Of a stretch of DNA of 64,000 nucleotides, positions 43,767 to 46,351 are shown piece after piece; position 1 is the first letter of the stretch; each line of letters begins with the position of its first letter. A program made the translations under genes and the position numbers. Origin of the DNA: an uncultured Clostridia bacterium. Lineage in GTDB: Bacteria > Bacillota > Clostridia > Oscillospirales > Oscillospiraceae. The stretch covers positions 60,780 through 124,779 of the forward strand of contig CAMVTO010000001.1 in the NCBI GenBank assembly GCA_947170435.1. The letters run 5' to 3'. Under the pieces are notes generated by a model. The model had not been told where the DNA came from. It did not search any database and worked only from the letters and a program-made list of their open reading frames with translations.

Positions 43767-44669
43767 ATGACTATCGTATATGCTGTTTTGATCCTCGGCG
43801 TCATCGCCGTCATCTTCGGCCTTGTCCTCGCGTTTGCCGCGAAGGTGTTCGAGGTGGAGGTCGACCCGAGGCTCCCACAGATCCAAAGCGCCCTTGCCGG
43901 CGCGAACTGCGGCGGCTGCGGCTATCCCGGCTGCGCCGGCTGCGCCGAGGCGATTTTGAACGGCAAGGCGCCCGTCACCGCCTGCGCCCCCGCGGGCGCG
44001 GAGGGCGCGGCGAAGATCGCCGCCATCATGGGCGTCGAGGCCGATGCGGGCGAGAAGCAGGTCGCGCACGTCATCTGCAACGGCGGCGACAACTGCGTCA
44101 AGCGCTATGACTACGTCGGCACGCCCAGCTGCCTCGCCGCGACGAAGGTTGCCGCCGGCCCGACCGCGTGCCAGTTCGGTTGCCTCGGCTTTGGCGAGTG
44201 CGTGGCTGCCTGCCAGTTCGACGCCATCCACATCAACGATCACGGCGTTGCCGAGGTCGACAAGGAAAAGTGCACCAACTGCGGCGCCTGCCGCGAGGCG
44301 TGCCCGCGCCACATCATCGTTGAGGTGCCCTACAAGCAGAAGGTGTTCGTCAACTGCGCAAACAAGGATCGCGGCCCGGCCGTGACCAAGGTCTGTGCCA
44401 ACTCCTGCATCGCCTGCGGTATGTGCGAGCGCACCTGCAAGAAGGACGCGATCCACGTCGTGAACAACGTCGCGGTGATTGACTACGCGAAGTGCGTCAA
44501 CTGCGGCCTGTGCGCCAAGGCGTGCCCGAAGAACGCCATCGAGCCGATCCCGACCCCGGAGGAGAAGGAGAAGTTCAAGGCCGCGCAGAAGGCTGCCGCC
44601 GAGCGCGCCGCCGCCGCGAAGAAGGCCGCGGAGGAGAAGGCTGCCGCCGAGGGTGCGAACCCGTCCTGA
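43767..44669 (+). CDS. rnfB: Rnf complex subunit B (polyferredoxin)
   Basis: ANCGGCGYPGC and multiple CxxCxxCxxxCP motifs. Confidence 0.95.
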   Translation: MTIVYAVLILGVIAVIFGLVLAFAAKVFEVEVDPRLPQIQSALAGANCGGCGYPGCAGCAEAILNGKAPVTACAPAGAEGAAKIAAIMGVEADAGEKQVAHVICNGGDNCVKRYDYVGTPSCLAATKVAAGPTACQFGCLGFGECVAACQFDAIHINDHGVAEVDKEKCTNCGACREACPRHIIVEVPYKQKVFVNCANKDRGPAVTKVCANSCIACGMCERTCKKDAIHVVNNVAVIDYAKCVNCGLCAKACPKNAIEPIPTPEEKEKFKAAQKAAAERAAAAKKAAEEKAAAEGANPS

Positions 44670-44742
44670 CACCGCCTTTTCTCTTTCCTCTTGCGGAAAG
44701 AGAAAACACGGTTTCAGACTTCCCCAAAAGAGAAAGACGCTG
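44666..44742 (-). repeat. Dispersed palindromic repeat family 1, copy C (inverted)
   Basis: Reverse complement CAGCGTCTTTCTCTTTTGGGGAAGTCTGAAACCGTG-TTTTCTCTTTCC-GCAAGA-GGAAAGAGAAAA-GGCGGTGTCAG; closest to copy B. Confidence 0.87.
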
Positions 44743-44771
44743 ACGCGACTGCCGCGTGAGCGTCTTTTTTT
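44733..44771 (+). terminator. Probable rnf operon terminator
   Basis: AAAGACGCT..ACGCG-ACTGC-CGCGT..AGCGTCTTTTTTT. Confidence 0.7.
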
Positions 44772-44830
44772 CTGCGTGGTACGATGCGCTGTTTTCCTTA
44801 TGTCGAATTGACTTCCCTCGATTGCCTGGT

Positions 44831-44891
44831 CACCGTTGCGCCAGCCGCTTCTCGCTTCCCGATGGTCGCGACAAGCGGGGCGCTGCCTCGA
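44831..44891 (-). repeat. Dispersed GC-rich repeat family 2, copy 2 (inverted)
   Basis: Reverse complement aligns end to end with 4689-4751. Confidence 0.85.
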
Positions 44892-45027
44892 AATTCGCTC
44901 GCTTCATCCGCCACAGGCGGCGCTTCGCTCATTTCCACCGGGCGAGCCCCGCCGTGTGCGAGGAGGGTGAGTCCGTCGTTCGACGGCAAAGACTTGACAG
45001 TGCGCGGAGAATATGGTACGTTTTTGA

Positions 45028-45186
45028 CGCCAAACACAAGTGAAATATCGTTACTAGAGTGAGTTTTTATTTCGGTAAAAACGCACCCCTTAATATTAGC
45101 GCACTCTGGTAGCGTTATTCACTTGTGTTTGGCGACGCATGGGGTCGCGTTTTTCGTGGCGTGACTTCGTGTCACGCCATTTTTTA
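45028..45186 (+). ncRNA. Putative structured sRNA or leader: long hairpin plus terminator
   Basis: Promoter TTGACA(44994)-17-(TG)TACGTT(45017); arm 45028-45061 pairs with 45102-45134; internal TTCG-capped stem 45063-45082; terminator 45156-45190. Confidence 0.6.
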
Positions 45187-45201
45187 TTTTGGGGGACGGG
45201 T

Positions 45202-45420
45202 ATGAAAACGGTGGACGAGTTATGGATGGACTTTGACGAGCAAAACCTCGCGCTGCACAACGCGCTGGACATGCTGTACGCGATGAGCGAAGCGGCAAAA
45301 AGCGACGACCTCGATCATAAGGCATTTGCAAACGCGCTGACGGTTCTTTATGACCATCTCAGCGAGATTGAAACACAATACAGTCAGCTCAACGAGACGT
45401 TGATCGCGCTGAAAACGTAA
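45202..45420 (+). CDS. 72-aa acidic, probably helical orphan protein
   Basis: GGGGGA RBS-like sequence; MKTVDELWMDFDEQNLALHNALDMLYAMSE...; amphipathic heptad pattern. Confidence 0.65.
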   Translation: MKTVDELWMDFDEQNLALHNALDMLYAMSEAAKSDDLDHKAFANALTVLYDHLSEIETQYSQLNETLIALKT

Positions 45421-45566
45421 ATTCCATCCCAAGCCCCGTGGCAGGCACCACTGCGCGAAGAAAGGTCGTGCCGGCGGGCAGCCGGCGCGTTGCACCGTCA
45501 ATTCAGCTTACGAAAACAGCGTCCCGTACTACGGCAGGTATCTTCAAATCCCAAGAAACCTTCCCC

Positions 45567-45640
45567 AAAAGCCCTTTCTCTTCTACGGAAGTTTGAAACC
45601 ATTTCTTCTTTCGGCAAGACGAAAGAAGAAACGGTTTCAA
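45567..45640 (+). repeat. Dispersed palindromic repeat family 1, copy D
   Basis: TCTACGGAAGTTTGAAACC-A-TTTCTTCTTTCG-GCAAGA-CGAAAGAAGAAA-C-GGTTTCAA; closest to copy A. Confidence 0.87.
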
Positions 45641-45649
45641 GAAACGTTC

Positions 45650-46351
45650 TTACGCCTGTTTCCGAATCAAAATAAACGGCGTACATTGATCGTCTTGTCC
45701 CGCAGGATTGTCGCGGATGATCTCGCAGAGCTGCTCGTCCGTGAGCGTCACATCGTCGCTCTTGCCGAGGATATCGCGGGTGAAATCATTGGCGTCGATG
45801 ATCATGGTGGAGACGCCGGTCTTTTCCCGAATCTCGTTGCAGACGCCATTGGGATTCTTCGGCAGCGGGATGCCGAACTCACCGTAGACCGGGAACACGT
45901 CGGGGTAGAAGCCGTCCAGCCCGCGCACCTCGTCGCCGACCATGTCGTAAAAGATGCCTTTCTTGCCGATGAGCTTGCCGAAGCCCGCGCACACCGCCGC
46001 CCAAAAGACCTTGAACGCACCGCAGCGGTCAATGGCGAACTGCATCTTGTACACGTCGCCCACGCCGATGCCCGCGCTGTTGTGCTGGGTAGCGAAGCGG
46101 CTCAAAAACTTTGCGAGCCAGCTGATCTTCATATCCTTGCGATAGACTACGTTCTTCTGGCAGAGGGAGACGATCTTTTCGCTGATGGCGAGCAGGTCGC
46201 CCTCCTGCCACAGGGGCTTGACGTAGCGCTCCACCAGCTCGTTGTAGTCCTCGCCGATCTCGATGAAGTGGGTCTGGATTGCGCAGCGGTCGTAGCTGCC
46301 GGTGCCGGTGTCAATGGTGACGTTTTTCTTGTCGTTGGCGGTAAAATCCAT
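45650..46351 (-). CDS. CofE-like (F420-0:gamma-glutamyl ligase family) protein
   Basis: GDLLAISEKIVS, IIDAND, DNPAGQ..Q.TP patterns typical of clostridial CofE-like proteins. Confidence 0.65.
   Translation of the reverse strand: MDFTANDKKNVTIDTGTGSYDRCAIQTHFIEIGEDYNELVERYVKPLWQEGDLLAISEKIVSLCQKNVVYRKDMKISWLAKFLSRFATQHNSAGIGVGDVYKMQFAIDRCGAFKVFWAAVCAGFGKLIGKKGIFYDMVGDEVRGLDGFYPDVFPVYGEFGIPLPKNPNGVCNEIREKTGVSTMIIDANDFTRDILGKSDDVTLTDEQLCEIIRDNPAGQDDQCTPFILIRKQA

Follow-up and report, generated by a model that had tools for sequence, protein, structure and literature searches.

What is the long hairpin that lies between a promoter, a terminator and the gene of a 72-aa orphan protein in the genome of an uncultured Clostridia bacterium, and what does it do there? 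A first-pass annotation, made from the letters of a 64,000-nt stretch of one contig (hereafter the window), had taken this arrangement for an unrecognised RNA-gated module. The hairpin, the terminator and the ORF are all real and lie where they had been placed (Table 1). The arms of the long stem (45028-45061 and 45102-45134) form 17 perfect base pairs, after which come one bulged A, one mismatch (U.U) and two G.U wobbles, as had been described, and this hairpin is the sole inverted pair of 17-mers separated by 20-150 nt in the 64-kb window. The region 45020-45200 has a minimum free energy of -81.7 kcal/mol (z = -10.1), with equally stable folds in 0 of 200 shuffled sequences, and a terminator scan recovered the stem at 45156-45180 together with its U run ahead of the small ORF.

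Table 1 Features of the leader cassette and of the repeat that encloses it, in positions of the window.
Feature	Position	Strand	Description
Left arm of dispersed ~400-bp repeat	44664..44846		Terminal palindromes, MITE/REPIN-like; matches one end of 'empty' copies
Predicted sigma-A promoter	44994..45022	+	TTGACA 44994-44999, 17 nt, extended -10 TG-n-TACGTT 45014-45022
5' arm of long stem S1	45029..45063	+	45029-45044 is the lower part; AAUA at 45044-45047 is conserved; the upper part beyond it is hypervariable
Segment A	45059..45070	+	Partner B (early hairpin) or B' (top of long stem)
Segment B	45077..45089	+	AAAAACGC plus variable tail, apical loop; partner A or C
3' arm of long stem	45097..45133	+	Starts with B'
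Linker	45134..45140	+	Family consensus R-R-C-A-A; only RRC kept in this copy
Segment C	45141..45154	+	Partner B (predicted OFF) or terminator 5' arm plus loop 45158-45168 (antiterminator, predicted ON)
Intrinsic terminator	45156..45190	+	10-bp stem, U run
72-aa ORF	45202..45420	+	Acidic, soluble helical-hairpin protein of a small family
Right arm of dispersed repeat	45424..45650		Inverted relative to left arm; 21-bp terminal palindrome

A consensus promoter scan left the TTGACA/TACGTT site uncalled (its -10 box matches at 3/6 positions) and called another site within the stem. In 71 of 83 homologues the best -10 box ends 6 nt ahead of the stem, which puts the predicted +1 at G45029; the stem does start near the predicted transcription start, as had been proposed, but the C45028-G45134 pair would lie outside the RNA. 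Two RNA-library contigs, X2 and X3, span the leader; their first bases, 45010 and 45019, lie ahead of the predicted +1, so that they are no proof of the transcript, and they may be DNA. The UUCG of the capped stem reported in the loop is present at 45071-45074, but it is closed by a U.G pair and is not conserved, and it forms part of another hairpin, A:B, whose formation competes with the upper end of the long stem.

This leader belongs to a widespread family of folded leader RNAs of Clostridia, present in multiple copies. No gathering-score match to Rfam was obtained in the 64-kb window or over the leaders of 13 loci, the leaders of 12 further loci gave none at E<=0.05, and at E up to 10 only sub-threshold miRNA-type hairpin matches appeared; the module matches no Rfam family, C4-related and riboswitch models included. 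BLAST detected paralogues in its own genome and 11 further places in 7 of 60 relatives, and a covariance model built from 48 members and used to search genomes then found 4 copies in its own genome. This model matched 4 of 40 genomes of the same taxonomic family, 41 of 150 of the class and 1 of 150 of the phylum, that one belonging to the same class; five rich genomes contain 14-23 matches each, a few of which are opposite-strand self-hits. Searching 3 of the 64 parts of the genome collection with a motif pattern yielded 120 loci, or an estimated ~2,600 stretches overall, chance matches included. There were 149 distinct pattern matches, 96 with a terminator of -8 or better and 90 of them parsed, and, among the matches listed, the passing genome-collection records are titled Clostridia or Bacillota and are mostly gut or rumen MAGs. 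Viral contigs yielded 60 and 20 pattern matches, yet only 5 distinct real units.

The fourth copy in the genome of origin (G000:C33:29535-29716, L224) is weaker and lies at a contig end, its gene not assembled. A long subtype (L012, L014, L081-L086 and others) has a stem span of ~150-165 nt with an extra segment in the 5' arm, and its distance from B to the end of the stem is still 42-63 nt. At one locus (L254:691-808, G284:C6), a stack of units begins with a drum RNA (RF02958, 76 bits) that has a promoter and a terminator of its own, followed by a truncated leader unit (860-958), three full units and a 62-aa ORF. Literature searches listed no description of the family, and six motif words are absent from supplementary files 1-6 of PMC8040213; the family may be among the 3,161 candidates of that paper. 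The portion available of Weinberg 2017 (PMC5737381) holds nothing that matches it.

Of 141 members submitted, 132 could be parsed, and in these the cognate duplex energies of 43 segment pairs were compared with permuted ones. Six helices covary: A:B' (z -31.5), the lower stem (-26.8), the terminator (-25.0), B:C (-19.7), A:B (-13.4, with a mean energy of -12.0 over members) and C with the terminator arm (-6.7), permutation values that overstate significance, as the members are related. All other distinct segment pairs are weaker than -3, and sub-segments of the six helices also score. With the terminator loop included (C:TL), the antiterminator reaches -12.65 versus -9.90 (z -13.3) and is better than shuffled arms in 128 of 132 members; one of -6 kcal/mol or better is present in 132/132, with a mean of -13.4 next to a terminator mean of -16.4. 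Among the 132 members, an antiterminator formed instead by the 5' end, B' or A showed no covariation.

A sequence-only alignment of 48 members gave pairing in 94.2% of cells versus 81.7% when shuffled, with compensatory change in 23 of 32 pairs (12/13 in the lower stem, 5/5 in the terminator, 6 of the 7 B:C pairs that vary), and sliding the helix partners abolishes this signal. The B:C energy is -17.4 for cognate, -14.2 for non-cognate and -11.3 for tail-shuffled pairs, the cognate being better than the shuffled in 87 of 87. The core words of B and C are fixed by the search pattern in 83 of the 141 input sequences; in the 58 model-found members they vary with compensation. The upper stem is more stable on the + strand in 120 of 130 members and contains 351 G.U pairs there versus 62 on the other strand, a bias which argues that it is selected as RNA and which ruled out an invertible DNA or DNA palindrome. 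An alternative pairing of GCGAC, at the end of the right arm, with GTCGC had also been proposed. This can form, but the last 10 nt of the stem show no covariation versus C (z -0.9 to -1.7, in a test that used the C segment, the linker not being itself a tested segment), and we rejected it as the switch: the covariation signal is carried by B:C and C:terminator, neither of which had been noticed in the first pass.

Judged from these pairings, the leader is probably, though by no means certainly, a transcription attenuator in which a predicted loop-to-tail pseudoknot would decide termination ahead of the 72-aa gene. An intrinsic terminator lies between promoter and gene, an antiterminator overlaps the 5' arm of the terminator, and an anti-antiterminator (B:C) overlaps the antiterminator; that these three covary supports the attenuator or antisense-controlled switch suggested earlier. 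The helices exclude one another in a chain, with A pairing with B or B', B with A or C, and C with B or the terminator arm. We infer that the OFF state consists of the long stem, B:C and the terminator, and the ON state of C paired with the terminator arm. In this copy, the duplex energies are -10.0 for A:B, -16.9 for A:B', -18.8 for B:C (13 bp) and -18.7 kcal/mol for the terminator, and for a transcript that stops at 45168 the nested fold predicted is the antiterminator hairpin (-13.5 kcal/mol).

In the proposed mechanism, transcription would begin on the first base of the stem, and a short hairpin would form with A capturing B. The 3' arm would then zip the long stem, B' displacing B from A and leaving B exposed in the apical loop. 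Provided that the stem folds back at the conserved AAUA loop, B could pair with the emerging C and so keep it off the terminator, upon which the terminator would fold and an RNA of ~155-160 nt would be released (OFF); were B:C to form too late, C would pair with the 5' arm and loop of the terminator, giving readthrough (ON). The default would be mostly OFF, with the readthrough fraction set by the race between B:C and C:terminator, and a signal common to all copies of a genome, most likely a protein recognising the folded shape, would tilt this race.

The fold-back matters for the geometry. The stem has a mean length of 34.8 bp, both linkers together average 11.2 nt, and the purine/A-rich linker from stem to C averages 6.7 nt; because a straight stem is too long for the linkers to span in 90 of 132 members, a pseudoknot in cis needs a putative bend. 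A loop or bulge of at least 4 nt is present in 119 of 132 members, at a median of 15 bp from the base of the ~35-bp stem, and AAUA occupies the hinge place in 93/132 versus 4/132 in the next stretch, taken as control. These features and the short linker, whose consensus over 132 members is R (130/132), R (130/132), C (122/132), A (109/132) and A (107/132), favour fold-back in cis; against a bend, the folded stem of this copy has only a bulge and a mismatch. The unpaired RRC-AA and AAUA are conserved though not invariant.

The upper stem changes faster than synonymous sites, which a cis switch leaves unexplained. Four alleles of one orthologous 72-aa-family locus are mosaics: L002 and L010 are 97% identical in the promoter and 94% in the ORF (23/25 four-fold sites), 67% in the terminator, 54% in the upper stem (shuffled baseline 47%) and 25% in the B tail, and L002 and L262 agree by 77-100% in leader segments and 69% in the ORF. 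Two congeneric genomes, with 17 and 13 parsed units, share 8 orthologous pairs; in these the promoter averages 0.96 identity, the lower stem, the B tail, the head of C and the terminator 0.83-0.88, and each of the upper arms 0.59. In four of four further runs, contigs match 45141/45143-45477/45480 with 10-13 differences in ~340 bases and carry other sequence upstream, two of them ending loosely in another stem end and two rejoining at 44952, and one RNA-library contig with this hairpin has unlike letters beyond the terminator. Because near-identical ORFs carry other hairpins and vice versa, hairpins and genes are exchanged at the conserved C/terminator block. Recombination is likely anchored in the conserved ends, and this would account for swapped hairpins, swapped genes and tandem arrays alike.

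In ten tandem sets inspected, promoter-like -35/-10 elements are present in every gap and the RNAs differ inside; in the L228 triple array, a 76-nt gap with duplicated SD and first codons is nearly unchanged, with unrelated RNAs. Gene-distal units make up 16 of 58 matches, and of the 12 parsed, 11 keep B:C (-11.4 to -17.6) and mostly all helices. This retention favours a function of the RNA itself and also fits recent shuffling; self-promoted tandem units and helix-keeping distal units are more than pure cis control requires.

Such observations bring in the main rival, a possible though doubtful reading that keeps the same two states and has B act in trans, like phage P4 CI RNA. The released hairpin RNA, its 5' end paired and perhaps trimmed at the stem base, would bind C of nascent transcripts and force termination, so that each cassette would silence itself after a pulse of expression, and the changing hairpins would be specificity (immunity-like) types. 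P1/P7 c4 is a further system grouped with P4 CI. CI RNA pairs with seqA upstream and seqC downstream (PMC4825925, in the portion available), and B is likewise complementary to an upstream site, A, and a downstream site, C. The length of a straight stem, too great for cis action in those 90 of 132 members, the retention of helices in tandem self-promoted units without a gene of their own, the near-uniqueness of upper stems (2 of 450 within-genome pairs exceed 75% identity) and the swapping of hairpins on near-identical genes all fit this reading as well. Against it, the terminated RNA includes its own C, which would occupy B unless removed, one distal unit (L258) has lost its 5' end, and a tertiary fold in cis agrees with the hinge and with a linker of conserved length.

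The absence of orthogonal codes inside a genome weakens the idea of a per-copy trans code in B:C: for 21-30% of non-cognate pairs the energy is less than 1 kcal from that of the cognate, and the non-cognate penalty within a genome (3.2, 2.9) equals that across a congeneric pair (4.0, 1.8). In two low-power tests, the arms gave no above-chance second match in their own genome as would-be guides, and one 20-mer of the upper arm had 0 exact matches in viral contigs. We regard it as rather unlikely that the system is protein-free and RNA-addressed, with the released hairpin as a trans key and the upper stem or the B/C code setting which copies are silenced.

An SD-led ORF follows the terminator in 76 of 90 parsed members, and this downstream gene is not conserved: surface proteins, AbrB-like regulators and small orphans are mutually unrelated. 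Pfam matches were obtained for 24 of 72 scanned ORFs (BspA LRR 4, C-type lectin 2, DUF6809 2, tRNA_anti-like 2, SHOCT/TM2 2, and singles including SLH, HTH, AbrB-like, NlpC/P60 and HIRAN). In three rich genomes, 31 of 48 ORFs were scanned, giving LRR 10, AbrB-like 4, SLH 2, copper-amine-oxidase N 2, RCC1 1, HicA 1, IS200 1 and none 10. AbrB/MazE-like regulators of ~80 aa recur behind the leader (L290, L274, L296, L281, L300, L287, L304, L256, L109) and are candidates for feedback on leader promoters. Acidic helical proteins of mostly 36-50 aa (MPDY../MDNYKEMY..) also stand behind it in many genomes (for example L004:1589-1735), ten times in G329 (L305, L306, L311, L313, L315-L317, L319-L321), with no Pfam match among those scanned.

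High-copy c-di-GMP riboswitches precede surface proteins in Clostridia, and the leader could in principle be a small-molecule riboswitch, for instance for a second messenger, that controls a regulon of surface proteins through a ligand stabilising the B:C pseudoknot. With up to 23 copies per genome, LRR, SLH, RCC1 or copper-amine-oxidase N in 15 of those 31 ORFs besides the four AbrB-like ones, and conserved unpaired RRC-AA and AAUA, the family has something of this character. We nevertheless consider it unlikely, as no Rfam riboswitch matched, loose E-values included, and the core words vary with compensation, which leaves few invariant bases for a pocket.

An rnfB-like ferredoxin gene and an F420-ligase-like gene converge on the cassette from its two sides, and it is enclosed by the inverted arms of a repeat present at 22 clustered places in the genome (among them G000:C15:1-433, C1:139522-139896, C1:53095-54210, C1:64274-65530 and C52:2004-3255; G000 is the genome of origin), some copies being empty (~400 bp) and some holding other cargo. 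One longer copy that was inspected lacks the leader RNA and has, between promoter and terminator, an ORF for a Cys-rich membrane protein, and a search for a RAYT/Y1 transposase (PF01797) gave no match in this genome, which is 88% complete. At the orthologous site, the gap measures ~140 bp in G017 and G018, ~240 bp in G011 and ~2 kb in G025, and the leader is absent from all four; in G025 (G025:C21:1002-3044, L323/L328) a different insertion of ~2 kb occupies the same rnfB site, which suggests that the space between these convergent genes is a hot spot for insertions. A further repeated stretch, 44830-44965, separates the left arm from the promoter, and many contigs that come from other organisms or places can be aligned to it.

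A mobile promoter-terminator module that merely dampens expression by constitutive leak, with unregulated helices and arrays as by-products of recombination, would agree with the patchy distribution (4 of 40 family genomes), with the position of the cassette within a dispersed repeat and its absence from the orthologous site, and with the duplication of the gene's SD and first codons in the L228 triple array; six mutually exclusive helices kept by compensatory change exceed what a leaky terminator needs, and we hold this explanation to be quite improbable.

The 72-aa protein belongs to a small family (7 matches in one search and 13 in another; 7 copies in 3 of 49 genus genomes). The leader does precede this orphan, as first described, and is found at 9 of 9 readable loci of its family, but it is not specific to it. 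The protein is predicted to form a two-helix hairpin (pLDDT 94) and is soluble and acidic (14 D/E, 4 K/R); its maximum 19-aa hydropathy of 0.39 ruled out a type I membrane toxin. It has no Pfam, PHROG or PADLOC family, a Foldseek search returned generic helical hairpins only, none at E<=0.001, and all Atlas look-alikes score <0.9. A Rop-like RNA-binding role was considered and is unsupported. A type III toxin-antitoxin pair, with a pseudoknotted RNA antitoxin and the 72-aa protein as toxin, had been suggested from the layout and accords with the order of promoter, pseudoknot-capable RNA, terminator and small gene (PMC3401426, in part) and with the leader at 9/9 loci, but is very improbable, as the leader has no short tandem repeats and no fixed toxin partner, the acidic helical hairpin belongs to no toxin family, and the same leader precedes dozens of unrelated genes, many of them secreted. 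A relic of a phage antirepressor-control region, also suggested, is unsupported: compensatory change maintains the pairings, only 5 distinct members lie in viral contigs, and none of the 72 + 31 scanned downstream ORFs belongs to an antirepressor, kil or icd family.

How the proposed pseudoknot-gated attenuator relates to known systems can be set out from the available portions of the papers cited here. Riboregulators of Firmicutes with terminator, antiterminator and anti-antiterminator have a defined logic (PMC5314783), in which C corresponds to strand 2, whose partner is either the 5' arm of the terminator or a strand further upstream, here B. Unlike these, the anti-antiterminator would be a 13-15 bp loop-to-tail helix across a ~35-bp stem, the leader would be gated by a further A:B / A:B' exchange, and it has no known sensor domain, leader peptide or Rfam match. 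With P4 CI and Gifsy-1 IsrK (PMC4825925), the leader shares a segment complementary to sites up- and downstream in one leader and premature termination before small genes, and the readthrough transcript could be a target of the short RNA released at its own terminator; in contrast to them, it lies mostly outside viral contigs, in multiple copies, before surface-protein rather than kil, icd or antirepressor genes, and it has an intrinsic terminator with an explicit antiterminator and no Rfam match, its trans action being hypothetical.

The zipper-type attenuator cATT of pLS20 likewise combines a long imperfect stem with an intrinsic terminator and two states of similar energy (PMC13401043). There, the antiterminator extends the long stem through a hairpin upstream of it, whereas here the RNA is predicted to start at the stem base, the 5' end scores only z -1.7 against the terminator arm, the antiterminator is local (C:TL), and the genes that follow are not conjugation genes. 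'Mobile attenuators', which are exapted IS terminators (PMC2965389), also place similar terminator-bearing leaders before unrelated genes; the present leader differs in having its own promoter and six covarying helices.

On the evidence of its pairings, this appears to be a real, uncatalogued attenuator family that follows the logic of Firmicute attenuators with a pseudoknot as anti-antiterminator, and its covariation supplies exact mutations for testing the helices. Occurring in over a quarter of sampled Clostridia genomes, in up to about 20 copies each, before surface-protein repertoires and AbrB-like regulators, the leader would rank as a major control element of uncultured gut bacteria that catalogues do not yet list. 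That close relatives differ in rapidly replaced upper stems is unusual for a leader acting in cis and suggests either diversifying selection or a special route of recombination. If the hairpins do act as RNA keys, tandem promoter-RNA-terminator arrays would be collections of keys, and hairpin exchange would re-wire or free up to ~20 surface-protein genes, like phage heteroimmunity played out on a chromosome. The trigger, once found, would point either to a regulator or signal of surface proteins that is new, or to a network of antisense immunity on the chromosome.
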